Notes: generated by a model from the sequence alone, not told the origin. A stretch of 64,000 nucleotides of DNA from Desulfobacterales bacterium (GCA_022340885.1 JAJDND010000085.1:19780-83779); one strand, 5' to 3'. Numbered from the stretch's first letter, positions 31,714-63,960 are shown. Numbers and translations: made by a program.

Positions 31714-31850
31714 GCAATCGCTATGCCAGATGAAATCGTTGTCTGATACTTCATTAATTAATTGAAATAAAAGTGTTTTTAAGGTTGAAAAGTGATTGTT
31801 GCAAGCATCGCGAAGAAATTAGATGTCGACTTTTTTTACAAGGTGTAAAA
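31714..31850 (-). promoter_or_regulatory. Sigma54 promoter + IHF-like site + upstream activator box
   Basis: TGGCATAGCGATTGC 31714-31728; TTTCAATTAATTA 31755-31767; tgtcgactttttttaca-agg-tgtaaaa 31824-31850. Confidence 0.85.
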
Positions 31851-31855
31851 GGGGA

Positions 31856-31930
31856 CCGCAGATGAACGCAGATATTCTGAAAAAAAGAAACTGGAAGCCA
31901 TCTCAAAATGAGGATTTGCGGTTATCGGTC
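31856..31930. repeat. REP-like element of 9-nt units (degenerate right arm)
   Basis: ccgcagatgaacgcagat ... atttgcggttatcggt. Confidence 0.45.
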
Positions 31931-31932
31931 TT

Positions 31933-33645
31933 CTATTTCCTGAAATTATATTCATTGGGGGTGTTTAATTTTATCAGGGCACCGTATTTTTTGAACAAGA
32001 CTTCTCCTTTTGGTTGAAATGAAAACATGTTGGCGCCGATATCTTCAAGCTTCTCGACAATCTGCTTAATATTCTCAGAGCTCGTCAGCGATTCTATCGT
32101 TTCTATGGATACTGTTTGATCCTTGGGTTGTGATTCAAGAATCTCATATGCGTCTTCAAATTCGTCTGCGGCAAACTGAGCGGTTAAAACAATATAGTCG
32201 TCCACCCGTTGTTTCGAATCCTTCAATTCCGGCCTTTTGAGAAGAAATGCCTCCATGGTTTTTCCGGTCAGCGTCATCAATGCTTTGACCTCCTTTACCG
32301 GAAACCCCTCGGCATGCCGTCTGCGCGCAACCTCTTGAGCAAACGCTGGAACTATGTACCGTTCTCTATTTCTTACCGTTGCCGCTATGATTTGATAATT
32401 CAACATAATGTGCCACGTCAACAGTTCGCGATCCATCGTCAGGTAATTGGGAAATTGTCGCGCATTGGCAGATGTGTTTACTTCTTGCACAATGTTTTGA
32501 ATGATAGGTTCGCGCAAACGGATCAAAAGATCATAGATTCGAGTACTTTTTCTGTAAGCAGGACGGTATAGATTGATTTCGTTGCGATACACCCAGTCTT
32601 TCGGCTGGCTGGTCATTTTTTCGGTTAAAAATAAAAGGCGTCGCAGTATATGATACCGGGGGGTCGGTTTCCAGCCCAAAGCCGTGTAGGTTGCCGAAGC
32701 ATCAATATCCAGCTTCTTATCGATATATTCGGCCATCCACGGCTTTTCGAGCATTTCCTTTCCAATCATCCATCCCGAAAAAGAAAGAACATAAAATCCC
32801 ATTCTCACAAGAAATTTGGGAATTCTAAACGATCTTACATCATGTCCGTAATAATAACGGGTAGCGGTTTTAAAAAGCTCATTGTGGGAAACACTCCCAT
32901 TAGGACCCGCAATATAAACGCCCAGCTGGGGAAGGATGTCGCTGATGTCGATGACTCTGAGAAACAATTTAATGAGATCCCGGATATGGATATAGGGAAT
33001 GGCGGATTCGCCATGACCGGCCACAATTCTCGACATAAACTTGTTTTTGGATAGCCAGTACTTTAACAGCATATACAACATGGGATATTCGCACCAGTCG
33101 CTGTATACAGCCGCCAGACGGACAATGGAACATGGAAAGGATTCCGAATACTCTTTGATTAGCATTTCTGCGCGCCGCTTGCTGCAGGCATAAGGGAAAT
33201 CGCCGTCGGCAGGACTTTCTTCGGTTACGGTACTGCCTTCGGGAGGAAAATTGCAAGCCGCCACCGAACTGGAAAAGATAAAACGCTTTACTTTCATCAT
33301 GTTTGACAACTCTAGAAGATAGCGGGTGGCAATGACGTTCACCTGCTCATATACGGGGTTTTCCTGTAGTGTAAAATCGTAATATCCCGCCAGATGCAAA
33401 ACATAATCCACGTTTCCGTGATATTGAATGTATTCATATACGTTGAGCAGATCCTTCCACTTTGTTATATCGGCCTGCAGCCAGTGTATATTACTGCGAA
33501 AGGGAATTCCGACCTCTTTTTGACTGCGGCGAGCGATACAGAACAGGCGAAATTTTTCGGACACGGCAAGGACGAAATGCCTGCCGATAAATCCGGAGGC
33601 CCCGGTGACCAGTATCCCTGGTAATTTGTTAACCGCGTTACTCAT
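31933..33645 (-). CDS. NAD-dependent epimerase/dehydratase (extended SDR) with extra C-terminal helical domain
   Basis: TGASGFIG, HLAGYYD, SS, YACSK; about 200 additional C-terminal residues. Confidence 0.82.
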   Translation of the reverse strand: MSNAVNKLPGILVTGASGFIGRHFVLAVSEKFRLFCIARRSQKEVGIPFRSNIHWLQADITKWKDLLNVYEYIQYHGNVDYVLHLAGYYDFTLQENPVYEQVNVIATRYLLELSNMMKVKRFIFSSSVAACNFPPEGSTVTEESPADGDFPYACSKRRAEMLIKEYSESFPCSIVRLAAVYSDWCEYPMLYMLLKYWLSKNKFMSRIVAGHGESAIPYIHIRDLIKLFLRVIDISDILPQLGVYIAGPNGSVSHNELFKTATRYYYGHDVRSFRIPKFLVRMGFYVLSFSGWMIGKEMLEKPWMAEYIDKKLDIDASATYTALGWKPTPRYHILRRLLFLTEKMTSQPKDWVYRNEINLYRPAYRKSTRIYDLLIRLREPIIQNIVQEVNTSANARQFPNYLTMDRELLTWHIMLNYQIIAATVRNRERYIVPAFAQEVARRRHAEGFPVKEVKALMTLTGKTMEAFLLKRPELKDSKQRVDDYIVLTAQFAADEFEDAYEILESQPKDQTVSIETIESLTSSENIKQIVEKLEDIGANMFSFQPKGEVLFKKYGALIKLNTPNEYNFRK

Positions 33646-33672
33646 ATCGTTGAAAGAACTTTTTTCGGGTAT

Positions 33673-35172
33673 TTAATTGAAAATGTCTTCATGCGCTAAA
33701 TCCGGAAGCATAGCGCCGTGTTCCAACAAATTGCGATGCAGTTCAAAACATCGTATCAAATCATGCTGAATGTGCCCGAGCCTGGCATCTTTTATGTATC
33801 GATAAAGGTAGCCCCTGTAGGCAGGATGAGCACATCTTTCGATAATGATTTTTGCCCTTTGCATAGGGCCTAATCCTCTGAGATCCGCCAACCCCTGTTC
33901 GGTGACGACGATTTGAACGGAATGCTCGTTGCTGTCCACATGCGGGCACATGGGCACGATAGAAGATATTCTGCCGCCTTTTGCGATGGAGGGCGTCATG
34001 AAAACGGACAAATAGCTGTTTCTCGTAAATTCGCCGCTGCCGCCGATGCCGTTCATGATATCCATGCCGTACAGGTGCGAAGAATTAACGTTGCCGTAAA
34101 TATCCATTTCAATGGCCGTGTTCAAAGCGATGACCCCCAGCCTTCGAATAACGCCCGGGTGGTTGGAAATTTCCTGAGGCCGCAGCACAATTCGCCGGGC
34201 AAAAAAATCTATATTGTCGACAAGCTGCTTTAATTTATCAGATGTGATGGTCAAGCTGGTGGCGCTGGCGCCCAGAAGCTTCTCTTCAGCCATGAGATCC
34301 ACCATGGCATCCTGAAAAACTTCAGAATACACGCTAAACGGAGGGATATCCGGATGGCGACCCAAAGTGGCCAACATGCCGTTGGCAACATTGCCGACCC
34401 CTGACTGGATCGGCAGTAAGGTCTTGGGAATCCTTCCGCTATGCATCTCTCCCAAGAAAAACTGAACCACATGTTCGGCGATTTGGCAACTGATGTCATC
34501 CGGCGCCCCGAATTCAGTCACATTGTCGGGCTCGCGGCTTTCCACGAGGCCAATGACTTTTTGGGGATCGACAACTGCATAGGGGAAACCGATACGCGTC
34601 AGGGGGTCGTAAATATGTATGGGATACCGCTTGGGCGGCGGAGGCATCACCACGATGTCCGCCATCTCGCGAAGCCGTTCAGATTGATGACGGTTGATTT
34701 CAATGATGACTTTTTCAGCGTATCGAAGATATGTCGGAGAAGCCCCGATGGACGTCGTCAGAAATACTCGTCCGTCTGATGTTATTTCCGTGGCTTCCAC
34801 CACCGCCACATTGATTCGACCGAAAAAACCTTCGGACACGGCCTGCGGAACGTGGGAAAGGTGCATGTCCACATATTCGACCTCCTGGCGATTGATCTGT
34901 CTACGCAGTACCGATCCCGACTGATACGGCGCCCGCCATGAAACAGCTTCCGCTTGGGCCAGCTCATCATCGATGATACGTCCGCTGGAAGCGCCGGTCA
35001 GCACCCTCACTTTGAAACGATTTCCTTTTTCGTGTTCATCGTGGGCGCGAGAGGCAATGGCTCGCGGTACAACTTTTGCAGCACCGGCAGGGCTGAACCC
35101 GCTAAACGAAACCGTATCGCCATCCCTTATGTATGATGCAGCTTCATCCGGTGTTAAAATGGGATAGCTCAT
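33673..35172 (-). CDS. Acetyl-CoA hydrolase / succinate CoA-transferase
   Basis: SGFSPAG, TGASS, QSGVGN, YSEVFQD, RPQEISNHP, MNGIGGSGEF, VTEQGLAD. Confidence 0.93.
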   Translation of the reverse strand: MSYPILTPDEAASYIRDGDTVSFSGFSPAGAAKVVPRAIASRAHDEHEKGNRFKVRVLTGASSGRIIDDELAQAEAVSWRAPYQSGSVLRRQINRQEVEYVDMHLSHVPQAVSEGFFGRINVAVVEATEITSDGRVFLTTSIGASPTYLRYAEKVIIEINRHQSERLREMADIVVMPPPPKRYPIHIYDPLTRIGFPYAVVDPQKVIGLVESREPDNVTEFGAPDDISCQIAEHVVQFFLGEMHSGRIPKTLLPIQSGVGNVANGMLATLGRHPDIPPFSVYSEVFQDAMVDLMAEEKLLGASATSLTITSDKLKQLVDNIDFFARRIVLRPQEISNHPGVIRRLGVIALNTAIEMDIYGNVNSSHLYGMDIMNGIGGSGEFTRNSYLSVFMTPSIAKGGRISSIVPMCPHVDSNEHSVQIVVTEQGLADLRGLGPMQRAKIIIERCAHPAYRGYLYRYIKDARLGHIQHDLIRCFELHRNLLEHGAMLPDLAHEDIFN

Positions 35173-35206
35173 TAAAAGTATCCTCGCTTTATCGTATAAG
35201 AATTGC

Positions 35207-35569
35207 TCATACCTTCTCGGATTCCGGCTTGTTTAAGGCATGAAACATAAATGCCGATGAAATGTTGCCGTTTTTAAGGACCTCATCGATGGCCTGTTTG
35301 AGGCTGATCATTGAACGATGGCCATCAATAATGTAGATAAGTACCGGAAGGTCCGGAACCTTTTTCTTGATTTCGTTTAAAACCTGCCAGCTGTCAAAAC
35401 TTTCAGAATGAAGTCCCAAAAGCACCAAATCCGGTCGCGCATCTTTAATATATTCCCAGATCGACCCGATGGTATTTAACGTTACGACTTGAAAGTTCTC
35501 AATGGCCAGTTCTTTATATAGCGCCGAGAGAATATCCTTTTTGTCGTCGACGATTAGAATTTTGGGCAT
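35207..35569 (-). CDS. Pseudo-receiver domain protein (start uncertain, 35569-35617)
   Basis: MPKILIVDD..PDLVLLGL: Gly at the phospho-Asp position. Confidence 0.7.
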   Translation of the reverse strand: MPKILIVDDKKDILSALYKELAIENFQVVTLNTIGSIWEYIKDARPDLVLLGLHSESFDSWQVLNEIKKKVPDLPVLIYIIDGHRSMISLKQAIDEVLKNGNISSAFMFHALNKPESEKV

Positions 35570-35714
35570 ATTTAATTTTCCGTCCATTCGAATGAATATG
35601 GGGATAAAATCGTGCAACGATTTTATGAAAATCGGTGATACCGATCAGTTTGACGAAAGACACCCTGCATTTGTTTAAAAAAAGATGCGGGCACGGATTT
35701 CTTTATAAGCTTCC

Positions 35715-35830
35715 GCAAAAAACATGCCATAACGGAAAATTTAATAATATATGCTTTTACAATGGGTTATTTAATCTATCTCTTTCCATTGAAATCGGAT
35801 CTGTGTCGATATTTTTTTCAGAATGTAAAG
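35715..35830 (-). promoter_or_regulatory. Sigma54 promoter + activator box
   Basis: TGGCATGTTTTTTGC 35715-35729; tgtcgatatttttttca-gaa-tgtaaag 35804-35830. Confidence 0.75.
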
Positions 35831-35902
35831 AAAACTGATTGCGGTTGAAAAATCATAAATGGAAAACCGGAGAGATGGGGTATTTGTTTAGAAGTGGTTT
35901 CA

Positions 35903-36295
35903 TTAATGGGTGGCAGCATATTGCCCTTGATCGAGTTTATCTTCTGCCTCCTGCATATCTCTTGCATTTTCTACCGCGAAACAGGCTTTTAAGTTGAAAA
36001 GATTTTGTTGAAAGAAATCAGCGTCGGTATTGTTTTTTCCGACGAGAACGATTCTCCCGGCACCATACGCATAAATTAAATCCACGGTATTAAACAATAG
36101 ATCAAGATCATTTTGACGAACACCCGTTTTTTTATCCAAGACAGCGATACATGAGAAGTTATAGGCCAAGTCCCCGCAGGCACTTTCGATAATATTCACG
36201 TATTCTGTTATATCATTTGAATTGCCTTCTTTTAAAATGACATACATTCTATTTTTTATGGGATTTATATGAACATAATGCATATGAATCTCCAT
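35903..36295 (-). CDS. Hypothetical protein, possibly STAS/SEC14-like
   Basis: 130-aa ORF downstream of a sigma54 promoter; fold guess is from pattern only. Confidence 0.6.
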   Translation of the reverse strand: MEIHMHYVHINPIKNRMYVILKEGNSNDITEYVNIIESACGDLAYNFSCIAVLDKKTGVRQNDLDLLFNTVDLIYAYGAGRIVLVGKNNTDADFFQQNLFNLKACFAVENARDMQEAEDKLDQGQYAATH

Positions 36296-36452: not shown

Positions 36453-36593
36453 ACAATTTTCATGCCAAGACTAAACTTCAAAATCGTTATTTTTTTAACC
36501 GGCTAATAATATGAGCAAACTCCCGTTAAACAGAATTTCGTGTTTCCGATAACGAATGGGTATTGATGTCGGTTTTTTTTACAGCGTGTAAAA
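36453..36593 (-). promoter_or_regulatory. Sigma54 promoter (-12 variant) + activator box
   Basis: TGGCATGAAAATTGT 36453-36467; tgtcggttttttttaca-gcg-tgtaaaa 36567-36593. Confidence 0.72.
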
Positions 36594-36747
36594 CGCTAAC
36601 TCAAGCTTTGTCAGCCCGATTGCGATCGATGCCGGTAAACCGCGGTGGTCCGGAATTTTTTTATGGTATGATTCTTGCTGTCTACTAGTAGCGAATTAGA
36701 GGGCTTATATCTGTAAATGGATCAAAAATGAATATTGGAGGTCTCCT

Positions 36748-37227
36748 ATGAGCCTTGAAAAAATAACGGACATCCTGCGAATGTCTGATCTCTTTTGCGA
36801 ACTCTCCGACAATGAACTGCAGTCCATCGCTGAACTGTGCCGAATTGAAGAATTTGAAGCCGGAGACATCATATATCGACAAGGCAGCGTCGGAACAAAA
36901 TTATATATTTTAGCCAAAGGGCGTGTCATTCTTGAAAGAGAGATTGACCTCGGGGGCACCCGCAAGGCCAAGCTGAATGTCTTTTCCCTTATGGAACGGA
37001 CAAATAGGCGGGTGATGGGAAGCTGGTATACGCTCATTGGGGAGCAACATGTGCATATGTGCTCTGCTATATGCGAAAAACCAACGAAGATGGTCTCCGT
37101 CGGCTGTTTTAATCTTAGAAGCGCCATGGTTCAGGATTCAACGATTCGGATCAAAATCTTGGAACAGCTCGTTTTGTTGCTTCGAGATCGAATACTCAGT
37201 TCTTATGAAGCCATTGATACCCTGTAA
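36748..37227 (+). CDS. Stand-alone cyclic nucleotide-binding domain protein
   Basis: LFCELSDNEL, FEAGDIIYRQG, LYILAKGRV; GGAGG RBS. Confidence 0.85.
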   Translation: MSLEKITDILRMSDLFCELSDNELQSIAELCRIEEFEAGDIIYRQGSVGTKLYILAKGRVILEREIDLGGTRKAKLNVFSLMERTNRRVMGSWYTLIGEQHVHMCSAICEKPTKMVSVGCFNLRSAMVQDSTIRIKILEQLVLLLRDRILSSYEAIDTL

Positions 37228-37332: not shown

Positions 37333-37545
37333 TTAGTCTCTTTCATATTTGAAGGAAAGCTTTACCCTGGCGCGATAAGCCGCCACTTTCCCATTTTCGA
37401 TCTTCAAATCCAGTTTGGTAATTTCCGCGATTCTAAGATCTTTGAGCGTACCTGAAGCCGTTTCCACTGCATTTCTAGCGGCATCATCCCATGAAGAACG
37501 GCTGGTTCCCACCAGTTCAATGATTTTATATACGCTGTCTGCCAT
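37333..37545 (-). CDS. Dodecin family flavin-binding protein
   Basis: VYKIIELVGTSRSSWDDAARNAV..YRARVKLSFK; AGGAG RBS. Confidence 0.92.
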   Translation of the reverse strand: MADSVYKIIELVGTSRSSWDDAARNAVETASGTLKDLRIAEITKLDLKIENGKVAAYRARVKLSFKYERD

Positions 37546-37597
37546 AACGAATCTCCTTTTATTGTCATTTAATCCATCTTTTTTCACCTGTTAATGT

Positions 37598-38080
37598 TTA
37601 TCCCGGTAGCGCCGTGATGGTTGCAGGGTCTTGTACCATGCCATAAAGCTGCCTTTTGACGCTTTTATAGCGTTCGAAATAGACCTTGGCGATTTCTTTT
37701 AAAAAAAGATATCCGATTTGATAATCTTTATGGAAGAGATCAAACAGGTCATCCGCGTTTATGGCCATCACCTCAGAATCTTCCATACAGACGGCATTCA
37801 GCGTATACTCCTGGGGCTTCATAAAACATGCCGCACCGAACAACTCGCCTTTACTCCTGTTTTCAAAGGAAATGTCAATGCCTTTTCCCGGATCGATCTT
37901 TCGCAGTTTCACCCAGCCCTTGCAAACGATATAAATCTGGTTGGCACGATCACCTTCCTTGTAGATCTGAGTTCCTTTTTTGAAGGTTTTTTTCTCCGTG
38001 ACTTTCAAGAGTTTCTCTAACTGATTATCTGAAAACGCATGAAAGAAATCGAATTTTTTGAAATCCATAATTGCTTTCAT
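37598..38080 (-). CDS. Stand-alone cyclic nucleotide-binding domain protein
   Basis: FKKGTQIYKEGD, IYIVCKGWV, GELFG. Confidence 0.87.
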   Translation of the reverse strand: MKAIMDFKKFDFFHAFSDNQLEKLLKVTEKKTFKKGTQIYKEGDRANQIYIVCKGWVKLRKIDPGKGIDISFENRSKGELFGAACFMKPQEYTLNAVCMEDSEVMAINADDLFDLFHKDYQIGYLFLKEIAKVYFERYKSVKRQLYGMVQDPATITALPG

Positions 38081-38121
38081 AATGAACCTCCTTTTTAAAA
38101 TTGGTTTAGCTTATATGAGAA

Positions 38122-39060
38122 TTAGGTCACAACCCATACCGCTCTTCTTCTGATAATGCTGATGACTTTATTGCTCACTCTACCCAGCAAAAATTCCTGG
38201 ACCTTGGATAAGCCCCTTCGGCCTAAAACGATGGTACCGTAATCTCCCTCTCTGGCTTCCTTAATGATCGCTTCTGCCCGGCTGGGGACGCCGGAAACCA
38301 GTTTGGTCGTTATTTGACCGGGTGCAAATCCGGCGTCTTCCAAACGGCGCTTTGCATTGTCGAATACAGCCTTTGCACCGGCTTCAGCTTCCTCTAAGCT
38401 TTCTTTGGAGAAAAATAGATGCGCAATCCCGGAATGAATGGATTGACCGCCTCGGATGACGTGAAACAGGTTTATTTTGAACTCGAAACCACCCAGAATC
38501 TGCGCAACATAATCTACAGCCCGAATGGCATTTTCCGAGTTGTCTACGGCCACGAGGAATTTGTTGTCAGGGGGTATTTCGCCGATCATCAACACCGGCA
38601 GGAAAGTCACTTTTTCAACGATTTTTTTCGCAACGCTTCCAACAATGACCTCTTTATAGGTGCCCATGCCCCTTCGTCCGATAATAACGGCATTATATCC
38701 ATTCTCGGCTTCTTTGACGATGTCTCTCGCAATACCTTCTTTTTTGTTGTGAATCCGCATTGAAACGGCATCTGAAGAAAAACCCGAATGGAGAAGCTTT
38801 TGCTTTGCATTTTCCATGGCGTTTTGAATCTCTTTTTTTTGCTGCATTTCCCACGCCCTGACTTCCCGGGCGGATCGACTGAATTGGGGATCTTTTCCGA
38901 GATCCAAATATGCCTCGGGTATACCGCTGAAAACATTAAAAAGCACTATCTTCATTTTATGAAAGGGGGTGAGTCCGCTGATATAATTTATCGCATGGAA
39001 AGCATGTTCGGAACCGTCAAATGTCAGTAGAATTTTTTGTTGAAATTGCGTCTTCATCAT
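38122..39060 (-). CDS. Tandem-domain universal stress protein
   Basis: ILLTFDGSE..GRRG..GSVA; LVAVDNSE..GRRG..GRVS. Confidence 0.92.
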   Translation of the reverse strand: MMKTQFQQKILLTFDGSEHAFHAINYISGLTPFHKMKIVLFNVFSGIPEAYLDLGKDPQFSRSAREVRAWEMQQKKEIQNAMENAKQKLLHSGFSSDAVSMRIHNKKEGIARDIVKEAENGYNAVIIGRRGMGTYKEVIVGSVAKKIVEKVTFLPVLMIGEIPPDNKFLVAVDNSENAIRAVDYVAQILGGFEFKINLFHVIRGGQSIHSGIAHLFFSKESLEEAEAGAKAVFDNAKRRLEDAGFAPGQITTKLVSGVPSRAEAIIKEAREGDYGTIVLGRRGLSKVQEFLLGRVSNKVISIIRRRAVWVVT

Positions 39061-39176: not shown

Positions 39177-39314
39177 GCAATAACTATTCCAGAAATAAAA
39201 TTGTCGGCAGTAATAATATAGGGCGCTGTAATAATAGGAAATTGATCTTGTTGTGATGAAATGTTGTGCGAGAATTGAAAAACAGCCTGTCGGATATTTT
39301 TACAACGTGTAAAA
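39177..39314 (-). promoter_or_regulatory. Sigma54 promoter + activator box
   Basis: TGGAATAGTTATTGC 39177-39191; tgtcggatatttttaca-acg-tgtaaaa 39288-39314. Confidence 0.8.
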
Positions 39315-39346
39315 GGAATTTTTAAAGTTCGGCAATGCGATCTTCT

Positions 39347-39482
39347 TTTTACAGTTTGTAAAAAAACCGGACAGATCCGGTAATCGGCTTAATTTTTTTT
39401 TTGGAATTTATGACAATATTAAAAGTTAATTCATATACATACATTATTCTCCCCTTTTATCTCCCCATGGCATAATAGTTGC
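39347..39482 (+). promoter_or_regulatory. Inverted activator box + sigma54 promoter (divergent)
   Basis: ttttaca-gtt-tgtaaaaaaaccggaca 39347-39373; TGGCATAATAGTTGC 39468-39482. Confidence 0.85.
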
Positions 39483-39577
39483 AAAAATAGTCTTCAAATA
39501 GCTACGTGAACATGTAATTGCTTAGCCTTTTGAAAATCGATCGATTCAGACAAGGTTATGATTCTAAAAGGAGGTAT

Positions 39578-40360
39578 ATGATGGCAATACAAATCGGAGG
39601 TGTAAAATACATTCCGGGAATGTACGAAAAAAAAAGGCCGACCGGCTCACAACTGGCGGATAAGTATTTTCGTGATATGGACCAAAAATGGATCGAACGG
39701 AAACAAAAAGAAAAAAGACCCGAAATTTTTCCGACAATCTGTTTTTCTCGAAAAATTGGTGTCGGCGCCTTGGAGATTGCAGATATTCTTGCAAAAAAGA
39801 TTAACTATAGTGTGGTTGACAGGGGACTGCTGATGCACATCGCCCAGGAAGCGAAACTCAGCGAAAAAACTGTCTCCTATTTCGATGAACGGTATCCCGG
39901 TGTTTTGAATGAATTTGCCAAACTGCTCTTCGGTGAAAAATCGTTTATCAAAAGCGACTATAGCCGGCATCTGGCGAATGTCGTGCTTTCGATTGCCGGT
40001 TTGGAACCCACCATTTTTGTGGGCAGGGGAACCCATTTAATCCTTCCCCGGGACCGCGTGCTGGCTATCAGATGCATCTGTTCGGACGAGCACCGGACCG
40101 AGCGGTTGGCCAGAATCCTTAATGTCGGAAAAAAAGCCGCCGCCTCAAAACTGCCCCAGATCGATAAAGAACAAAGTGAATTTTTTAAAAAGGTTTTCAG
40201 CAAAAAAGAAGCCCTTCCATACGAGTTCGATATGGTGATCAATTGCGACTATATCAGCAATACACAAGATGCGGCGGAAATCGTTGAACTGGCCTTTAAG
40301 AAAAAGTTTGCCGAAGAACTTTCATCTTCCGGCTGGACCGAAACAGCAAAGGCATCTTAG
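39578..40360 (+). CDS. Cytidylate kinase-like family protein
   Basis: ICFSRKIGVGALEIA, IFVGRG, FDMVIN; AGGAGG RBS before 39578. Confidence 0.82.
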   Translation: MMAIQIGGVKYIPGMYEKKRPTGSQLADKYFRDMDQKWIERKQKEKRPEIFPTICFSRKIGVGALEIADILAKKINYSVVDRGLLMHIAQEAKLSEKTVSYFDERYPGVLNEFAKLLFGEKSFIKSDYSRHLANVVLSIAGLEPTIFVGRGTHLILPRDRVLAIRCICSDEHRTERLARILNVGKKAAASKLPQIDKEQSEFFKKVFSKKEALPYEFDMVINCDYISNTQDAAEIVELAFKKKFAEELSSSGWTETAKAS

Positions 40361-40572: not shown

Positions 40573-40718
40573 GAAGTGGTTTCAAAACCTTCAATCGGGT
40601 TTAATGTCAAGGCGGACTGAGACGGGAAACCGCAGGAATATCGTGAATATTTCGAGGATTGAACGGCGCAGTCCAACACAGAGATTGAGCCCGAGGGGAG
40701 GTTTTGAAACCACTTCTA
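40571..40718. mobile_element. 148-bp MITE-like element, terminus type A
   Basis: Perfect 20-bp terminal IR tagaagtggtttcaaaacct / aggttttgaaaccacttcta; second copy at 53659-53806. Confidence 0.85.
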
Positions 40719-51836: not shown

Positions 51837-51840
51837 GGAT

Positions 51841-53658: not shown

Positions 53659-53806
53659 TAGAAGTGGTTTCAAAATCTCCCCTCAGCCTCAATCTCTGTG
53701 TTGGACCGAGCCAGCCAATCCTCGAAGTATTCCCGATATTCCTGCGGTTGGCCGTCTCAGTCCGCCTTGACCTTAAACCCGGTTGAAGGTTTTGAAGCCA
53801 CTCCTG
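53659..53806. mobile_element. 148-bp MITE-like element, type A, opposite orientation
   Basis: Reverse-complement homolog of 40571-40718 with the same length and termini. Confidence 0.85.
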
Positions 53807-53825
53807 GATAAATGACGACATTTCT

Positions 53826-54398: not shown

Positions 54399-54456
54399 TA
54401 TTTCCCCTGATGTCCGTCATTTTTCCTATTTTCTTTCAGTAACCAATTATTTATCC

Positions 54457-54536
54457 TCGACTTGATCGATTTTGTCCATAGGGAAAAGCTTCATTTTTTC
54501 TGGGGAAATCTCCCATACGGGAATTTTCCCCATACA
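54457..54536 (-). promoter_or_regulatory. Conserved 80-bp regulatory block, copy 2
   Basis: tggggaaatctcccat-acgggaattttccccat; matches 49105-49185. Confidence 0.75.
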
Positions 54537-54651
54537 TTGAAAAAATGTTTTTCTCCTCTCGACTTTCCTATTTCGTTTTTTTCAGCTCAAAGGTTAACAC
54601 ACAAACTGAATCATAAAGACCGACCGAACCCCTCTTCACCAGATATCCGTG

Positions 54652-57201: not shown

Positions 57202-57338
57202 GCGTGTTATCCTGAGCGATTAAGATTCATGAAAAATCGATTCCCCGAGATTCTCGAAAGAAAATGTATTGAATATATGATGGCCGTCATAGTCCAGAAC
57301 CCGTAAATCATTCGTCTGGTCATGAGACTTTTTTGCGC

Positions 57339-57785
57339 CTAATCATCCCTTCGTGACCGAATAATCAGCAGCGGCCGATCGATCAGATTCAATACACCGG
57401 CCGTTACACTCCCATAAAAAGCCCTGGCCAAACCGGTTCTTCCGTGACTGGACATAGCGACGAGATCGGCATTTTCTCTCAAAGCGCAGTCGATAATCTG
57501 CTCGACCACCGGACCGCCCACAACGCATGTTTTGGCTTCGATGCCCTTTTCTCGAAATTCTCCCTTCAGGGAATCCAAGTAAGATTCAGCCTGCTTGCCT
57601 ATTTCTTCCAGGTTATGATGGTACAGCAGAATTGCACTCTCATCATACCCCACAAGATTGGGGAATGTAACCACCTGCAAAAAAATTATCCTGCTGTTCA
57701 AACATTGAGCCAAAGCCTCGACGTGTTTCAAAATCCGTTCCGCTCGCTTTGATCCGTCCAACGGCACTAAAATCGTTTTATACAT
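57339..57785 (-). CDS. Universal stress protein
   Basis: MYKTILVPLDGS..MSSHGRTG..YGSVT; paralog of 44254-44703. Confidence 0.93.
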   Translation of the reverse strand: MYKTILVPLDGSKRAERILKHVEALAQCLNSRIIFLQVVTFPNLVGYDESAILLYHHNLEEIGKQAESYLDSLKGEFREKGIEAKTCVVGGPVVEQIIDCALRENADLVAMSSHGRTGLARAFYGSVTAGVLNLIDRPLLIIRSRRDD

Positions 57786-57829
57786 AATCGCTCCCCTTGA
57801 AGAAAACATCTGCCGGTTAATCTGATTAA

Positions 57830-58300
57830 TCATCGATCCATATCTTTATCTTTGCGTAAACTTAACAACGGCACCGGGCAATGACGGAACATCTTTTCCG
57901 CGGTTGTTCCGAAAAGAATGCCTGCAAGATTGGTGCGGCCCTTTCGCCCCATCACCACAAGATCGACGCCGCTATCTTTAACCGCTTGTATCAGCTCACG
58001 AAACGGGACGCCTGTCTTGATCTTTATCTCTACAGGAATGTGTTTGACGGACATCTCTTCGACTGTTTGATGGATCTGTTCCCGTCGATCTTTTTTCCTG
58101 TCTTTGATAAATTCGTCCGCGGAGAAACTAATGCTTTCTATTTCCGCTCTCCGTACGGCTTCAACATCTCTTTGGTTGATGACATTGACGATCATCAGAT
58201 CGCTTTTTAGCTCATCGGCCAATTCAAGAGCAAACGACAAAGCTTCTTTGGAGTAGTCGGAAAAGTCATACGCCACCATGATTTTTCTTATTTTTTCCAT
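57830..58300 (-). CDS. Universal stress protein
   Basis: [24 protein letters not shown]. Confidence 0.92.
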
Positions 58301-58317
58301 TTCTTCCTTCCACGGTA

Positions 58318-58614
58318 TTATGTTTCGGTCAATCGGATAACACTGTTGTAAGTGCCAAATCGATTGGGACATCTCGAGTTATTCCGGGGATCTTCCAGCC
58401 ACTGTCCATCCACTAAAAATTTATATTCATAGCTTCCCGGTGAAAGAATTACCCGTTTTTTCCATGTCCCATTTTTATCTTTTCGCATGGGATGCTTTTC
58501 CTGGCTCCAGTCATTGAAATCTCCCGTCAGAAAGACTTCCTTGGCATTCGACGCTTCCAGTAAAAATGTCCAGCTTTTGCGTTTATTGCTCTGCTTTGAT
58601 TTGGGCCCCAACAT
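58318..58614 (-). CDS. Stand-alone glycogen-binding (CBM48-like) protein
   Basis: [17 protein letters not shown]; close paralog of 48521-48817. Confidence 0.9.
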
Positions 58615-58726
58615 GATCCACCTCCTTAAATCTCAATCTATCGTTACCGATTTTTTTGAAACCAATTGAAATCATATAAATTCCGTTTACCAATCCCTGT
58701 TGCGTAAATCAGCTAACAAAAAGAAC

Positions 58727-58862
58727 GCAAAAGATATGCCAGCTATCAATCATCCCGGTGTGTTGGATAAACGGCTGATAAATAATTATTTTTTTTAGCT
58801 CATTTAAAATCTTCACCATAGGTGAAATAGATTGGTGTCAGAATTTTTTACAGAATGTAAAA
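58727..58862 (-). promoter_or_regulatory. Sigma54 promoter + IHF-like site + activator box
   Basis: TGGCATATCTTTTGC 58727-58741; TATCAGCCGTTTA 58768-58780; tgtcagaattttttaca-gaa-tgtaaaa 58836-58862. Confidence 0.87.
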
Positions 58863-58961
58863 TGGGTTGCAACCGAATGGCTTGATATTCAATAAAACAG
58901 AAAGTAGCAAATATTTTTGGTTTCAGCGTGTCCCTCGGAGAAACAAAAAGAGAAATTTTAT

Positions 58962-59037
58962 CACGAAAAAACGAAATTCGGAAAGCACGAAAAAGAATGT
59001 TTACTATTTCGTGCTTTCGTCCTTTCGTGTTTTCGTG
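58962..59037. repeat. REP-like inverted element
   Basis: cacgaaaaaacgaaattcggaaagcacgaaa ... tttcgtgctttcgtcctttcgtgttttcgtg. Confidence 0.65.
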
Positions 59038-59100
59038 TTTGATTTTTAATCATATTTCAAGAATCGATGCAAATCGCTTACCATGGCTGATTCAGCACTT

Positions 59101-60840
59101 TTATCCCGCCTTTTTATAGGACTTTGATTTAACGAAATCGAAAACAAATAAGAAGTTCAGAATAAACATCACCAGCAGAATCACCATCACCGACCACCCG
59201 GGAACCGGTTTTGCGGCAATCGCACCGGGCTGAACCACAACGATAAACCATAGGAGTCCCGCTGTAACGGTAATCCAGAGCAGCCAGGCGGGAATCACCG
59301 CGACATTGGCATATCCGGATTTCAGCTTTTTCGCGACATAAGCAGCACCGGTCATGAGTGCGATGGATGCGATCAGCTGGTTTGCAGCGCCAAAGGATCC
59401 CCAGATAACGAGCCAGTTGCCGCTGGCCGCAAGGTAGATGCCGATGGCTGCGGGGATAATCGACGCCACCAACCGCTGGGTCAGCAAATTGTATAGTCCT
59501 TGAGCATTTTCCTTCAGCGGCGCAGCCATTTCCGACAAACAGTATCTGGCCAGGCGGTTGGTCGTGTCCAGCGTGGTCATGGCAAAAGACGCCACCCACA
59601 TTCCGGCAAGCACTTTGACATATTGAACAGGTATAAATGAAAGCCATGTCGACGCCACCATGTCGGCATAAGATTGCACAAAGAGGTTGGCTTGTGAAAG
59701 CCCCAATTTTGCGGAGATTCCCGTAAAGGTTGCGCCCCAGTTGGATGCATTGAGGGTGAATTCCACCGCCTTTGCCGCGGCAGCCGCCTTGAGGGCCGCA
59801 TAACCGAAACCGGCAATAGCGACAACGACAATCGTCGAGAGGAATCCTTCCATAAACATGGCGCCGTAACCGATCAACAGGCCGTCGCTTTCTTTGTCGA
59901 GCTGCTTGGAAGATGTTCCCGAAGCCACCAGCGAGTGGAATCCGGACAGCGAACCGCAGGCAATGACTAGGGGAATCGCCGGCCAGAACGGTGTCGCCTT
60001 GCCTCCCAGCAGCACCGGAGAAAAACCGGCGAATGCCGGCACCTCGAACCCTTTGAAGGCAAAGATGGCGGCGACAAACCCCAGAACCAGTCCGGCATAA
60101 AGTAGCCAGGAGTTCAGATAATCCCTGGGCTGGAGAAGAACATTTACCGGAATCGCCGATGCAATGATGATGTAGAAAAAGAAAACCCACATCCAGATCG
60201 GATAAGATGCCTTGATAGGAATGACGGTGCCGAGCCAAATCGCAAAGGCAAGCATGACAATACCGATGATCGTCGCCAGGCCGAAGTTCATCTTTACCCG
60301 GTATATCAGCACCCCCAGAATCAGGGCGGCAATGATTTTAAAAAGATATGCCGATGCAATGGCCGGCGTTCGGACGAACATTCCGCCGATAATGGCAGCG
60401 AAGGCGGCGACCACAAGGATCAACAGGAAAAAAACGATCCAGTAAAACGCATACCCCGTCCGCTTGCCGATAAGATCGGTGGCAACGAACTGCACGGATT
60501 TCCCGTCGTAACGAACCGATGCCATCAGCGACAGATAGTCATGGACGGCACCGATAAAAATATTGCCGAACCAGACCCATAAAAGCGCCGGCGCCCACCC
60601 CCAGCAAATCGCCAATGCCGGTCCGATGATAGGGGCCGCACCGGCAATGGAGGCAAAGTGATGCCCCAAAAGCACCTCCTTTCGCGCCGGGATATAATCG
60701 ACACCGTCATAAAGGCGATGAGACGGTGTCGCCTGATCGATTGAAACCTTTACCACATCACTTTCAAGTTTCTTTCCGTATGTTAGATAAAGGACAAAAT
60801 AAATGAAAAACCCAACAACAATAATAAGCGTCGTCATCAT
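59101..60840 (-). CDS. cstA: Carbon starvation protein A family transporter
   Basis: GHHFASIAGAAPIIGP, GAVHDY, LLQPRDYLN, IACGSLSGFH, TTLDT, FGAANQL. Confidence 0.93.
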   Translation of the reverse strand: MMTTLIIVVGFFIYFVLYLTYGKKLESDVVKVSIDQATPSHRLYDGVDYIPARKEVLLGHHFASIAGAAPIIGPALAICWGWAPALLWVWFGNIFIGAVHDYLSLMASVRYDGKSVQFVATDLIGKRTGYAFYWIVFFLLILVVAAFAAIIGGMFVRTPAIASAYLFKIIAALILGVLIYRVKMNFGLATIIGIVMLAFAIWLGTVIPIKASYPIWMWVFFFYIIIASAIPVNVLLQPRDYLNSWLLYAGLVLGFVAAIFAFKGFEVPAFAGFSPVLLGGKATPFWPAIPLVIACGSLSGFHSLVASGTSSKQLDKESDGLLIGYGAMFMEGFLSTIVVVAIAGFGYAALKAAAAAKAVEFTLNASNWGATFTGISAKLGLSQANLFVQSYADMVASTWLSFIPVQYVKVLAGMWVASFAMTTLDTTNRLARYCLSEMAAPLKENAQGLYNLLTQRLVASIIPAAIGIYLAASGNWLVIWGSFGAANQLIASIALMTGAAYVAKKLKSGYANVAVIPAWLLWITVTAGLLWFIVVVQPGAIAAKPVPGWSVMVILLVMFILNFLFVFDFVKSKSYKKAG

Positions 60841-60962
60841 TTCCTCCTTTCTTTGTAAATCAGAGAATATTTTCTTAAAAAAGTTCTGTTACAAACTTCC
60901 TGACAGTATCGTTTCATTTTTTGTACCGGCATTTTTAAAATGCATGGCTTTGAATCAAAATG

Positions 60963-61101
60963 GCAAAAGACATGCCAAGATAAACTTTGCAGGCAAGATC
61001 AAATAATTCCCTGATAAGTCATGGTATTCTCAGTAGATCCATCAACTTTTCGACATGGACAAGGAGGATATTGGTGTCAGATTTTTTTACACGCTGTAAA
61101 A
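60963..61101 (-). promoter_or_regulatory. Sigma54 promoter + IHF-like site + activator box
   Basis: TGGCATGTCTTTTGC 60963-60977; TATCAGGGAATTA 61004-61016; tgtcagatttttttaca-cgc-tgtaaaa 61075-61101. Confidence 0.87.
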
Positions 61102-61156
61102 AAAATTAGGGTTTGACATTATTGCGAGTAATATACGATTTGAAATCTTCTGAGTG

Positions 61157-62770
61157 TCAATTTATTTTTTTCTTTTGATTTTCATACCATTTTGCAAACA
61201 GTTTATCGAAATACTTCTCGTCTTCGATCATCTCTTTGGTGATGTGATACGTCCCTCTGACTCCCATATAATTTAAGGCGGATGCGCCGGAAAGAAATTT
61301 TTTAAGCGTCTCGTATATCTGGAGGTTATGCTGGTGTGCATAGTTTTCAAAATAATCTTGCACCGATTCATCCAAGATGAGTTCGATCCCATATTCTTTT
61401 TTAAAATTCTCTACATAATCGACAAATGGAGATCTTTCCAGCATTTTCAAAAGAAAATCCTTAGGTTTTTCACACAACTCCCGATTTACTTTCAAAAATG
61501 AAAAATTGGAACCCGGAAGTTCGAATTGAAAATCCGTCAAGATGTTCTCCCATACGCTGACAAGGGCACGGGCGCCTGTCTTTCGATTTTCCGCAGTTTC
61601 CGCAACATATTCGATGGCGTTTTGAGTAAACTCGAGATCGATATTGAAGAGCTTGAATTCCATTATATACTGATTGAGGATCGAATCCTTGGTGTCCTGC
61701 ATAATGCGAATCAAATCGTTTTTGGATAACAGGTTGACAAAGGTTCGTATGGGAGACCTGCCGATCAGCTCGGGAAGAAGTCCGAAATTAATATAATCAT
61801 CCGCTTCCGCTTCCTTGTAATAGTTTCTCAACCGACTCTTTTCGTTTTTTTTCTTTTCGGAAGCGAATCCTTTGATCTCGACACTGCCATCATCTTTTAC
61901 ACGGCCCTTATGCTGCAGACGTTTTTTTACGATAGACTCCAAATTGTCGCCCATTCTTTCAAAAGATCCTCCCAAAATAAACAGGATATTCTCCGTACTG
62001 ATCATACTGTCTCTTTTGCCGCTTTTTTCCCCTCTCTGTCGATCGATGACCTCCTGGATTTGCGAGGCAGCGGAATACGGATTGTTGATGGGAACGAGTT
62101 TTCTTTCTATCAGCTTTAAAACCGATCGCTGAAATCCTTCTCTTGAGATGTCGTGTCCGGCCAACGATCCGTCTTTTGCCTTTTTGTCGATTTCATCGAT
62201 ACAGATCAAGCCCCCATATCTGCTGATAAACCGCGCCTGCTCCTCACGACGGTGTCCCGGAGCCATATCAATCAATTCGCGAACCATGTCATCGGCACTC
62301 TTGCCCACATAACCGGCTTCGGTGTAGTCCGTGGCATCGATAATGAGTGTGGGGACCTGCAAAAGATCGCCTAAGACCTCCACGCAATAGGTTTTCCCAC
62401 TGCCTGATGGTCCCGCGGTGATCGTATTTTTCTTTCGAAATCTTTTTACCGTTTCATCTTCCGGATGCTCTCTGAGGTATTTGATCATGGCGAAATGATA
62501 GCCTGCGGCAATGGCCAGCCGCTTTTTATATTCCTCCTGGCCGATGACATATTTGTCCAGATGTTTTTTGATTTCTTTGGGTGTATAGATTTTGGGTTCA
62601 CCGGTTTCCGGTGTCTTTTTTTGCGAGGAAAATCGATTCTCTAGAAAAGACTGGAATGCCTCGCCGGCCCTTTCCTGGGCATCCAGGTATGCCTTGGCCG
62701 CTTCTTCTTCCGTGCAATTATAATCGGCCATGATCTGAGTGATAGCTTCTTTTGGAATGGATATTTTCAT
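61157..62770 (-). CDS. ClpX-like AAA+ ATPase without zinc-binding domain
   Basis: TPKEIKKHLDKYVIGQ, GPSGSGKT, DAT..TEAGYVG, IDEIDK, PELIGR, TGARAL. Confidence 0.87.
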   Translation of the reverse strand: MKISIPKEAITQIMADYNCTEEEAAKAYLDAQERAGEAFQSFLENRFSSQKKTPETGEPKIYTPKEIKKHLDKYVIGQEEYKKRLAIAAGYHFAMIKYLREHPEDETVKRFRKKNTITAGPSGSGKTYCVEVLGDLLQVPTLIIDATDYTEAGYVGKSADDMVRELIDMAPGHRREEQARFISRYGGLICIDEIDKKAKDGSLAGHDISREGFQRSVLKLIERKLVPINNPYSAASQIQEVIDRQRGEKSGKRDSMISTENILFILGGSFERMGDNLESIVKKRLQHKGRVKDDGSVEIKGFASEKKKNEKSRLRNYYKEAEADDYINFGLLPELIGRSPIRTFVNLLSKNDLIRIMQDTKDSILNQYIMEFKLFNIDLEFTQNAIEYVAETAENRKTGARALVSVWENILTDFQFELPGSNFSFLKVNRELCEKPKDFLLKMLERSPFVDYVENFKKEYGIELILDESVQDYFENYAHQHNLQIYETLKKFLSGASALNYMGVRGTYHITKEMIEDEKYFDKLFAKWYENQKKKIN

Positions 62771-62794
62771 AAACTTGCTCGCTTAGAAAACAGT

Positions 62795-62866
62795 AACCGC
62801 AAATGGACGCAAATAAACATAAATATTATTTTTTTAATTTGTGTTTATTCGTGTTCATCCGTGGTT
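62795..62866. repeat. REP-like inverted element of 9-nt units
   Basis: aaccgcaaatggacgcaaataaacataaat ... atttgtgtttattcgtgttcatccgtggtt. Confidence 0.65.
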
Positions 62867-62916
62867 TTATTTTTTCTCTTCCCTCTTTTCTCTTTCCTAT
62901 CTTTATGGTTTAGAAT

Positions 62917-63864
62917 TTAGGTTACAATCCACACCGCCATCTCTCTAGCCATTTGTACGATCTTGTTGCTTACCCGCCCCATGTCGAACTCTTTTACATT
63001 CGAAAATCCCCTTCGTCCGACAACTATGGTTCCATATCCTCCGTTTAAGGCCTCCATCACAATTGCACCGGTTCGGCTGGGAACCGGGCTAACGATTCTG
63101 GTATGGATTTTATTTCGATTAAAACCGGCTTTCTCAAAATGATCCGCGGCCTCTTTAAAAATAAAACTCATGATTTTTTCAATGTGTTCCGATTTTATTC
63201 CATCGACATCTCTGATCGCATGAATCAGGGAGACTTCCCAGCGTGAGCTGTCTGCCATGGCGCCGACATAATCGATAGTTCTCTTTGCGCCTTCCGACGC
63301 ATCTATGGCCAAAAGAATTTTCCCGACAAGGGGTGTGCCCCCCACAACGCAAACCGCCGTATGGGTAAGACGTCCGATCAGTTTATTGGCAACGCTTCCC
63401 CATAAAAAATCTTTAAGCATGCTCGTTCCCCAGCGGCCCACAACCACGCCATCATAATTATCACGAGACTCATGGACAATATCTCTGGCAATGCCTGCTT
63501 TTCTTGCTTGGATTTTAATTTGAACGGCATTTTGCGGAAAGTTTTGCTCCATAAACAACCGGCGCGCTTTTTCCATGAATATGTCAACTTTTTGGTTCTG
63601 TTCCACCTCCCAGGATCGGATGCGGTCATCCTCATGATGGTTTCCGGTCTCTGTTTCAATATCCCAAAAACTTTCCGGAAACTGTGTCAGCACATTAAAA
63701 AGAACAACCTCCGTACGATCCGGCGGAAACAACCGGCCGGCATAGCGCACCGCCTCAAAAGACTGGTTCGAACCATCCACTGCCAGCAGAAATTTTCTTT
63801 TGGATTTTCCCACGGAATGCTCCTTTTTGGATTTTTTAACGACATCTGCGTTGTCAACGATCAC
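62917..63864 (-). CDS. Tandem-domain universal stress protein
   Basis: LLAVDGS..VGRWG..GSVA; LLAIDAS..GRRG..GRVS; paralog of 38122-39060. Confidence 0.92.
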   Translation of the reverse strand: MIVDNADVVKKSKKEHSVGKSKRKFLLAVDGSNQSFEAVRYAGRLFPPDRTEVVLFNVLTQFPESFWDIETETGNHHEDDRIRSWEVEQNQKVDIFMEKARRLFMEQNFPQNAVQIKIQARKAGIARDIVHESRDNYDGVVVGRWGTSMLKDFLWGSVANKLIGRLTHTAVCVVGGTPLVGKILLAIDASEGAKRTIDYVGAMADSSRWEVSLIHAIRDVDGIKSEHIEKIMSFIFKEAADHFEKAGFNRNKIHTRIVSPVPSRTGAIVMEALNGGYGTIVVGRRGFSNVKEFDMGRVSNKIVQMAREMAVWIVT

Positions 63865-63905
63865 CCTGTGAGCGGATGATCATCAATTTCAATATAAATA
63901 TCGCC

Positions 63906-63960
63906 GCAAAAGACATGCCAAAATCGACCGTTTATGGAAAGATGGACTAACACATTGATT
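63906..63960 (-). promoter_or_regulatory. Sigma54 promoter + IHF site (activator box expected beyond the window end)
   Basis: TGGCATGTCTTTTGC 63906-63920; AATCAATGTGTTA 63948-63960. Confidence 0.82.

Follow-up and report, generated by a model that had tools for sequence, protein, structure and literature searches.

We analyzed a stretch of 64,000 nucleotides (the window) from the draft genome of a Desulfobacterales bacterium (GCA_022340885.1, JAJDND010000085.1:19780-83779, corresponding to contig C186:19780-83779), and found a cluster of sigma-54 promoters that share one oriented 27-bp sequence, here called the box, which most probably is bound by an NtrC-type response regulator encoded just beyond the window end. 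A first-pass annotation of the window had reported ten sigma-54 promoters with a shared box and had proposed a single activator for them. The observation is confirmed and extended here, and the proposal is supported by the exclusive association of the box with sigma-54 promoters, its conservation in front of orthologous genes, and its co-occurrence and co-localization with this one regulator. The draft genome comprises 3.55 Mb in 228 contigs (47.3% GC, 89% complete), and the organism's nearer records are of the Desulfobacterales type rather than Desulfovibrio. Coordinates past the window end are extrapolated from contig C186 or from the locus record L001.

In the direction of transcription, the box reads TTTTACA-N3-TGTAAAAAA-N3/4-GACA. 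A third half-site, ACA, comes after a palindrome that is perfect (7-3-7), with GACA always toward the promoter. The box contains a TGT-N11-ACA unit and has three TGT/ACA half-sites in all. The form TGT-N11-ACA-N3-TGTAAAA is found exactly at 31824, 36567, 39288, 39347 (on the opposite strand), 46225, 58836 and 61075, with 0.11 copies expected in the window. Seven of the eight boxes listed in the first-pass annotation are therefore exact, whereas the eighth, at 35804, is only a near match (25.7 bits), with two palindrome positions off consensus. The exact palindrome TTTTACA-N3-TGTAAAA has eight copies in the draft genome, all on C186, the eighth lying just past the window end. A weight matrix trained on these eight sites (leave-one-out scores 30-44 bits) returned 11 sites of at least 25 bits from the whole genome, namely the training sites, the 35804 site, and one site each on contigs C70 (34.9 bits) and C110 (33.0 bits). 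The next-best match, at 23.2 bits, is without a promoter, and the matrix maxima in three shuffled genomes are 16.2, 24.4 and 19.7 bits.

All 11 sites are followed, in the box's own orientation, by a sigma-54 element (defined for this pairing as at most one mismatch to TGGCAY-N5-TTGC), and the motif is thus not found away from such promoters, equal frequency elsewhere being what the earlier annotation had named as evidence against its regulon. The distance between the centre of the palindrome and the GG of the -24 element is 115, 119, 114, 115, 117, 116, 114, 116 and 116 bp at nine sites, 94 bp at the 35804 site, and 262 bp at the site belonging to the promoter at 63906. An element at 90-125 bp would be expected by chance for 0.03 of the 11 boxes; ten of the 11 have one at 94-119 bp. 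Expressed in turns of 10.5 bp, the three classes of distance (94, 114-119 and 262 bp) amount to approximately 9, 11 and 25, from which we infer a face-of-helix constraint. The box is a dyad-symmetric, sigma-54-specific site within the range of ~80-150 bp upstream of -24, the placement of a sigma-54 enhancer. An alignment of 48 distinct sites shows no further conserved position upstream of the box. A model with two dimers, in which another TGT would stand 11 bp before the distal ACA on its upstream side, was rejected, as positions -9 to -7 of these sites are not conserved.

The canonical sigma-54 pattern TGGCAC-N5-TTGC has no match in the window, and because the promoters here use TGGCAT we relaxed it to TGGNAT-N5-TTGY, which matches 13 times (1.8 expected). 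All ten -24/-12 elements of the first-pass annotation are among these matches, each of them intergenic and facing an open reading frame (ORF), and eight of the ten are exact TGGCAY-N5-TTGC. Genome-wide there are 72 exact sigma-54 patterns, eight of which fall in a 33-kb stretch where 0.67 would be expected. The genome has a single copy of rpoN, on contig C86 (PF04552 match, 215 bits).

On the minus strand, the element TGGCATAGCGATTGC (31714-31728) lies 54 bp upstream of a Pat-like gene and is preceded by the box at 31821-31853 (44.2 bits; 115 bp from centre to GG). The element TGGCATGTTTTTTGC (35715-35729), upstream of receiver and acetyl-CoA hydrolase genes, has the weaker box at 35801-35833 (25.7 bits; CTTTACA-N3-TGAAAAA...CGACA; 94 bp). 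Upstream of a gene for a 130-residue hypothetical protein are TGGCATGAAAATTGT (36453-36467) and a box at 36564-36596 (44.6 bits; 119 bp), and upstream of a gene with tandem universal stress protein (USP) domains are TGGAATAGTTATTGC (39177-39191) and a box at 39285-39317 (42.5 bits; 116 bp). The plus-strand element TGGCATAATAGTTGC (39468-39482), which precedes a cytidylate-kinase-like gene, is matched by a box in the opposite orientation, also on the plus strand (39344-39376; 40.9 bits; 114 bp). The remaining elements are again on the minus strand. They are located at 46115-46129, upstream of the gene for a 231-residue TauE protein (box 46222-46254; 47.4 bits; 115 bp), at 58727-58741, upstream of the gene for a 98-residue CBM48 protein (box 58833-58865; 44.4 bits; 114 bp), at 60963-60977, upstream of the CstA gene (box 61072-61104; 43.7 bits; 117 bp), and at 63906-63920, upstream of genes for a 315-residue tandem USP and a ClpX-like protein. 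Outside the contig, the C70 and C110 boxes each have a sigma-54 element at 116 bp. The tenth element, TGGCATATCTTTTGC (43967-43981, minus strand), precedes the gene for a conserved hypothetical protein of 1022 residues and is the one that lacks a box.

For the promoter at 63906, a box had been predicted at about 64015-64045. The box exists, but at extrapolated 64160-64192 (C186 83939-83971, minus strand; 44.2 bits), where it is the ninth of the cluster and accounts for the distance of 262 bp. Box and promoter are separated by a 148-bp dispersed repeat, the first 44 bp of which are in the window (63957-64000), the remainder extending to extrapolated 64106 (C186 83736-83885). The repeat has terminal inverted repeats, forms one long hairpin (-57.8 kcal/mol), and has no Rfam match; the draft genome has copies of at least 130 bp, with a median identity of 80%, at no fewer than 51 places. 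Because this element is missing from the orthologous USP/ClpX-like promoter of another species of the genus, G006, where the box stands at 117 bp, the insertion at the 63906 promoter is derived. Without the repeat the distance of 262 bp would be the canonical 114 bp, and the 148 bp of the insert are approximately 14 helical turns.

The repeat-rich character of the genome, together with near-identical -24/-12 cores at several promoters, would fit a box that has no regulatory function and arose with the duplication of promoter cassettes or with a repeat element. We regard this explanation as extremely improbable. From one promoter to the next, the spacers on either side of the IHF-like site are unrelated in sequence, only the box and the -24/-12 blocks being conserved, and across families of the order the box is kept with constant orientation and spacing while its flanks have diverged.

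An activator site, a DNA bend and a sigma-54 promoter together make up a textbook layout, and the first-pass annotation had assigned it to the promoters here, with IHF-like sites (WATCARN4TTR) as the bending element. As a sequence pattern, this three-part layout is real for a subset of the promoters, not for all. The IHF-like pattern is not enriched overall (12 matches in the window, 7.1 expected), yet in four cases the match begins 39-40 bp upstream of a promoter's TGG, all on the minus strand: TATCAAAGAGTTA (46156-46168), TATCAGCCGTTTA (58768-58780) and TATCAGGGAATTA (61004-61016) at 39 bp from the promoters at 46115, 58727 and 60963, and AATCAATGTGTTA (63948-63960) at 40 bp from the promoter at 63906. 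The fifth proposed site, at 31755, stands at the same distance and has one mismatch. Counting this one, versions with one mismatch are present at 38-41 bp at four promoters (those of the Pat-like gene, the 130-residue protein gene, the 1022-residue protein gene and C110), and four of the 12 promoters examined have no IHF-like site.

The cluster includes one promoter that we left out of the box regulon. A degenerate box had been placed at 44078, upstream of the promoter at 43967, and we could not retain it: the best matrix score upstream of this promoter is -4.6 bits. A different sequence is conserved at about 116 bp upstream of the promoter in G006 and G010, and the promoter may answer to another activator. 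The gene behind it (40716-43784, minus strand) encodes the 1022-residue protein, which a protein atlas places only in unnamed clusters, seen mainly in Thermodesulfobacteriota, and which is 87-92% conserved in G002, G006 and G010.

Between 20 and 64 kb of the window no sigma-54 activator gene is encoded. The genome contains 37 matches to PF00158, and the best of these is located directly upstream of the last box, in a gene for a 478-residue protein (extrapolated 64393-65829, L001 1172-2608, minus strand). This candidate activator comprises a receiver domain (PF00072, 109 bits), a sigma-54 AAA+ domain (PF00158, 250 bits) and a Fis-type helix-turn-helix domain (PF02954, 51 bits), the composition of an NtrC-type response regulator, and its translation contains the GAFTGA motif, the Walker A motif GESGTGKE, and the phospho-acceptor Asp in LVILDMRLPG. 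It scores below the NCBIfam equivalog cut-offs for NtrC (TIGR01818, 488.5 against 558.6) and AtoC (NF008469, 480.4 against 714); assignment as either equivalog was therefore rejected, and we treat the protein as a member of the broad family. A histidine kinase gene (extrapolated 65801-67306, L001 2580-4085, minus strand; 4HB_MCP sensor, HisKA and HATPase domains) overlaps the regulator gene by 29 bp. The regulon had been described as island-wide. The clustering in 33 kb is real, but with two members on C70 and C110 the regulon is not limited to the island, and the gene of its candidate activator is just outside the window.

Several lines of comparative evidence point to this adjacent regulator as the protein that binds the box. 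For comparative scans we used the exact pattern TTTACA-N3-TGTAAAA-N6-GACA, with the same pattern reversed as a control; the control has no match in any of the genus and order genomes scanned. Within the genus, the exact pattern is present in 13 of 15 other species, in up to 13 copies. An ortholog of the regulator (at least 82% identity) is found in 11 of the 15, and all 11 have at least three boxes. G004 and G012 have neither a box nor a regulator ortholog (best match 41-42%), and orthologs of Pat and of the cluster phosphorylase were not found in these two box-less species either; therefore, cluster and regulator come and go together. G005 has one box and no regulator ortholog. The synteny of the cluster is kept in G002, G006 and G010, and its presence in the genus is patchy.

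The arrangement of box and promoter is retained in relatives. At 19 loci of seven relatives we found 39 boxes above 20 bits, 37 of them with a downstream sigma-54 element and two without. The 37 paired boxes are located at 113-119 bp (28 boxes), at 93-94 bp (four), or at 82, 107, 127, 130 and 278 bp (one each), and the boxes precede orthologs of Pat, the USPs, the CMK-like protein, TauE, CstA, CBM48, the receiver/acetyl-CoA hydrolase pair and the C110 kinase. The box is found before the Pat orthologs of G010, G006 and G002. G010 and G002 have the 33-mer of the weak site at 35801-35833 unchanged, and G006 has a close variant of it (28.2 bits). The upstream regions of Pat and CstA are 82-85% identical overall within the genus and are too conserved for footprinting.

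Across the order, the exact pattern is present in 66 of 151 sampled genomes, from 50 of 110 genera (this genome counted). It is found in 56 of the 84 genomes with a regulator ortholog and in nine of the 66 without one (one copy each), with 28 and 57 genomes, respectively, lacking it; related genomes are not independent, and these counts describe a pattern rather than a probability, the Fisher p-value computed from them overstating the association. The ortholog is present in each of the 33 genomes that have more than one box. Of the 56 genomes with both, 35 have a box and the regulator gene on one contig, and in 13 a box follows the stop codon of the regulator gene within 600 bp on the same strand; several closed genomes of the sample have the ortholog with a box behind it. 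Across related genomes the site is thus conserved together with the regulator gene and in its vicinity, as would be expected of its enhancer. The loci around more distant homologs served as a negative control. A homolog search with the regulator gave mostly matches at the level of paralogs (39-49% identity) and two close ones (63% and 73%, the latter partial), and in 1.32 Mb around 80 homologs from other phyla the box is present only in the record of the 63%-identical homolog, labelled Desulfobacterium sp., where a sigma-54 element follows at 116 bp before a USP gene.

Beyond this non-independence, several observations weigh against the reading of one activator acting through one box. Many NtrC-type activators use at least two dyads, against a single composite site at each promoter here; an exact IHF-like site is present at only four of 12 promoters, and the genome has seven PF00216 (HU/IHF-family) genes, in which the matches cannot tell IHF from HU; and the promoter at 43967 lies in the middle of the cluster without a box. 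Metatranscriptome contigs from three runs of one study are 90-99% alike to parts of 44001-64000, come from a close relative that is not necessarily this strain, and carry no information on start, strand, co-induction or transcription of this strain, the uncovered parts being uninformative. Further, the regulator ortholog was not found in G009 (11 boxes; 87% complete, 720 contigs) or G016 (five boxes; 84% complete, 230 contigs), nine genomes of the order have an exact box without an ortholog, and 28 of 84 have an ortholog without an exact box. We examined the region downstream of the regulator gene in 20 of these 28. In six, a box of at least 18.8 bits follows the regulator gene within 1 kb and is paired with a sigma-54 element at 105-116 bp. 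Another five show a weaker site resembling the box, paired with a sigma-54 element at 82-113 bp, and one has a box of 26.6 bits for which no promoter was detected; nothing box-like was found just downstream of the gene in the other eight.

The species and genomes that have boxes and no ortholog, together with the 37 PF00158 matches, would fit a different assignment, in which the box is the enhancer of another of the roughly 30 full-length sigma-54 activators of the genome. This is improbable, since the exceptions are fragmented, incomplete assemblies, and since none of the 33 multi-box genomes in the order-level sample lacks the ortholog, a box follows its stop codon within 600 bp in 13 genomes, and diverged boxes follow the regulator gene in further genomes. 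Moreover, the box-less species have orthologs (79-88% identity) of both other sigma-54 activators encoded on the contig.

We also considered that the box could be the site of a co-regulator without an AAA+ domain, such as the 225-residue LuxR/NarL-type regulator encoded with a HisKA_3 hybrid kinase, the true enhancer being located elsewhere. Such a DosS/DosR-like pair does lie inside the cluster, and G016 has boxes and a 72% ortholog of the LuxR-type regulator while the sigma-54 activator ortholog was not found there. Sigma-54 promoters, however, require an AAA+ activator, and the 48 aligned sites contain no other conserved upstream element. The LuxR-type regulator was, in addition, not found at E ≤ 1e-30 in G022 and G024 (97-98% complete), which have box-promoter pairs beside the activator ortholog. 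We consider a co-regulator site even less probable than the binding of another activator, and retain the adjacent 478-residue regulator as the most probable ligand of the box.

We propose the following mechanism. A membrane histidine kinase with a four-helix-bundle sensor would phosphorylate the 478-residue NtrC-family regulator. The activated regulator, to judge from the sequence patterns, would bind a single oriented 27-bp box about 140 bp upstream of the predicted transcription start, on a fixed face of the helix. The DNA between box and promoter would be bent, at some promoters possibly by IHF bound 39-40 bp upstream of -24, and the AAA+ ring would contact the sigma-54 holoenzyme and lead to promoter opening. 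At least 11 promoters, nine in the cluster and two on other contigs, would be driven by this one two-component system. Its predicted targets include seven USP genes, an alpha-glucan phosphorylase and CBM48 proteins, possibly a glycogen synthase, the Pat-like protein, an acetyl-CoA hydrolase/transferase, CstA, the ClpX-like ATPase, a PPDK-like enzyme, and a second tier of kinases and receivers. From the USP, glycogen, acetyl-CoA and CstA content, our guess is that the programme is dormancy-like and responds to starvation for energy or carbon or to redox stress.

The genes behind the promoters were identified by Pfam and NCBIfam profile matches. Scans for sigma-70 promoters and terminators gave numbers at the level of chance (30 against 30.6, 28 against 23.7, 32 against 30.1, and 28 against 25.5); therefore, operon ends could not be set from them, and operon extents were read from gene order and tight same-strand packing only. 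On this basis, the promoter at 31714 would head a putative operon at 20077-31660 (minus strand), starting with the Pat-like fusion of an ADP-forming acyl-CoA synthetase and a GNAT domain (828 residues) and continuing with a CBS protein, a receiver, a dCache histidine kinase, two receivers, a TauE protein (432 residues), a hypothetical protein, a PPDK_N/PEP-utiliser protein (866 residues) and a GNAT protein. Behind the promoter at 35715 are genes for a receiver (136 residues), the acetyl-CoA hydrolase/transferase (499 residues) and an SDR/epimerase-like protein (570 residues; 31933-35617, minus strand), and behind that at 36453 is the gene for the 130-residue hypothetical protein (35903-36295, minus strand). 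The promoter at 39177 precedes genes for a tandem USP (312 residues), a cNMP-binding protein (160 residues) and dodecin (84 residues; 37333-39060, minus strand), the plus-strand promoter at 39468 the gene for the cytidylate-kinase-like protein (39518-40360), and the promoter at 46115 genes for TauE, a YgaP-like protein (83 residues) and a USP (168 residues; 44254-46035, minus strand).

The promoter at 58727 is followed by genes for the CBM48 protein, two USPs and the alpha-glucan phosphorylase (849 residues; 54652-58614, minus strand). Its transcript possibly reads on into the region 46348-54398, with kinases, receivers, the LuxR-type regulator, a second CBM48 protein and a GlgA-like synthase; judged by gene order only, glgA and these internal kinases would be members of the regulon. 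CstA is encoded at 59101-60840 (minus strand) behind the promoter at 60963, and the tandem USP and the ClpX-like AAA+ ATPase (537 residues) at 61157-63864 (minus strand) behind that at 63906; the ATPase scores below the ClpX cut-off. The C70 promoter precedes genes for two hypothetical proteins, a TAT-signal metallo-beta-lactamase-fold protein and a CobW-like GTPase, and the C110 promoter a gene for an APH/AAA_33 kinase-like protein. There is no Pfam or NCBIfam match for the 1022-, 130-, 140-, 190- and 95-residue proteins or for the 91- and 471-residue proteins of C70.

The alpha-glucan phosphorylase gene (54652-57201, minus strand) is a second, regulon-specific paralog: G009 has an 87% ortholog as well as a 59% paralog, and the box-less G004 and G012 and the single-box G005 have only the 59% paralog. 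At 49231-51349 (minus strand), the gene of the receiver-PAS-HisKA_3 hybrid kinase overlaps that of the LuxR/NarL-type regulator and adjoins those of another kinase and receiver, which suggests that the DosS/DosR-like pair forms a second regulatory tier below the sigma-54 activator. A copy of a related subfamily of the 148-bp element, at ~53660-53805 between a kinase gene and the ORF of 190 residues, has by far the greatest depth in the metatranscriptome contigs. On C110, a diadenylate cyclase gene with DACND/DACNH sensor domains (L003 9938-11362, plus strand) is divergent from the box-driven kinase-like gene.

Three further matches to the relaxed sigma-54 pattern, at 23001, 36664 (plus strand) and 54343, were not on the list of the first-pass annotation. 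Those at 23001-23015 (minus strand), inside the PPDK-like gene, and at 54343-54357 (minus strand), in the 5' end of the 190-residue ORF, have no box and are probably due to chance. The third, TGGTATGATTCTTGC (36664-36678, plus strand), is located 70 bp upstream of a plus-strand ORF (36748-37227). This ORF is preceded by a good ribosome-binding site, and its match to a cNMP-binding domain is weak (25.2 bits, below the cut-off of 27.5); the 140-residue ORF on the opposite strand probably is a shadow ORF. The palindrome at 36577 is only 80 bp from the GG of this element, and the equivalent promoter in G002 has its own box of 20.8 bits at 114 bp. Beyond the window, a sigma-54 element at L001 8343-8357 (minus strand; C186 91343) has the sequence TGGCACACTCCTTGC, and the dyads upstream of it, AAAACGTTTCAA...TTGAACGTTTT and TTGATTCATTATGAATCAA, are different. 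Behind this element, four receiver genes and a CitMHS/Na-sulfate-symporter gene follow one another on the same strand, and the run ends in the kinase and activator genes; the element may be part of a cascade via another activator.

Of the marks of a mobile island (deviant composition, a flanking tRNA gene or integrase, patchy presence), the cluster has a patchy presence in the genus; it shows no such sign by composition (41-48% GC, against 47.3% for the genome) or by tRNA genes, of which the window has none. An Rfam scan of 29000-64000 gave no match at the gathering threshold.

The gene content invites comparison with the DosS/DosT-DosR system of Mycobacterium tuberculosis, in which one two-component system controls a dormancy regulon with many USP genes and enzymes of storage and central carbon metabolism. 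DosR is a LuxR/NarL-type activator of sigma-70-type promoters and not a sigma-54 enhancer-binding protein, and by analogy the regulon described here would resemble the DosR regulon in content only.

The closest functional parallel that we found is NmpR of Myxococcus xanthus (NmpRSTU), which, like the candidate regulator here, is an NtrC-like regulator of several sigma-54 promoters, in that case of an oxygen-utilization regulon (PMC11841059). According to that source, the NmpR site is GCGCA-N5-TGCGC, usually present as two sites 14-15 bp apart, universal stress proteins are discussed, and NmpRSTU is placed in a network of multiple kinases and receivers with a proposed role in the response to oxygen limitation (PMC11841059). 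The system described here differs in its single A/T-rich composite box and in a kinase sensor of the 4HB_MCP type instead of a haem kinase.

In domain composition (receiver, AAA+ with GAFTGA, Fis-type helix-turn-helix) and in the kinase gene upstream, the system is like NtrB/NtrC at glnAp2 and like the activator regulons of Desulfovibrio vulgaris (PMC4641369). It shares with NtrC-family systems a TGT/ACA dyad about 100-140 bp upstream of -24/-12 and the co-localization of the regulator gene with its targets, and differs from them in having one composite oriented site per promoter in place of tandem dyads; unlike NtrC, the content here is stress and storage genes rather than nitrogen genes. In the Desulfovibrio study, activator motifs have TGT/ACA half-sites 9, 11 or 12 bp apart, one site having three half-sites, activators were assigned by conserved co-localization, and regulons mostly comprise 1-4 operons, with maxima of 6, 9 and 12 (PMC4641369, Kazakov et al., 2015). 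Measured against these maxima, as given there, a regulon of at least 11 promoters would be among the largest of its kind. The box and regulon are not described in the literature on sigma-54 activators, USPs and Desulfobacterales or Desulfovibrio regulomes that we searched, the supplementary tables of PMC4641369 and PMC12316311, which may hold a related motif, being outside its scope. Regulon and motif thus appear to be undescribed, while the architecture is textbook.

A broader reading, which we offer tentatively and consider possible rather than likely, is that Desulfobacterales-type sulfate reducers have an ancient, order-wide sigma-54 programme for dormancy or energy starvation. It would comprise USPs, glycogen turnover, enzymes of acetyl-CoA metabolism and protein acetylation, CstA and a ClpX-like unfoldase under one kinase-activator pair, and would have expanded to at least 11 promoters in this genus. 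The enhancer would be a single asymmetric box of three half-sites, in one orientation and on one face of the helix (~9, 11 and 25 turns), with orientation and phase as hard constraints in place of classical position independence. If this were so, the insertion of the repeat would have been tolerated because its 148 bp, approximately 14 turns, keep the box of a one-face enhancer in phase.

The system stands out by its size, its order-wide conservation, and a single composite enhancer whose orientation and phasing are rigid. Strict geometry, combined with a natural phase-keeping insertion of 148 bp, makes it a clean system for the geometric limits on looping between an enhancer and sigma-54 holoenzyme. 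Sigma-54 activators are very numerous in this group, as the count of domain matches in this genome illustrates, and almost none has known targets; the motif is ready for use in annotating the regulon in the 66 of 151 sampled genomes of the order. For environmentally important, mostly uncultured bacteria resembling sulfate reducers, the analysis provides a concrete regulon, a motif and a candidate regulator, and the gene content points to a coordinated response of stress, storage or dormancy that bears on their persistence in sediments.

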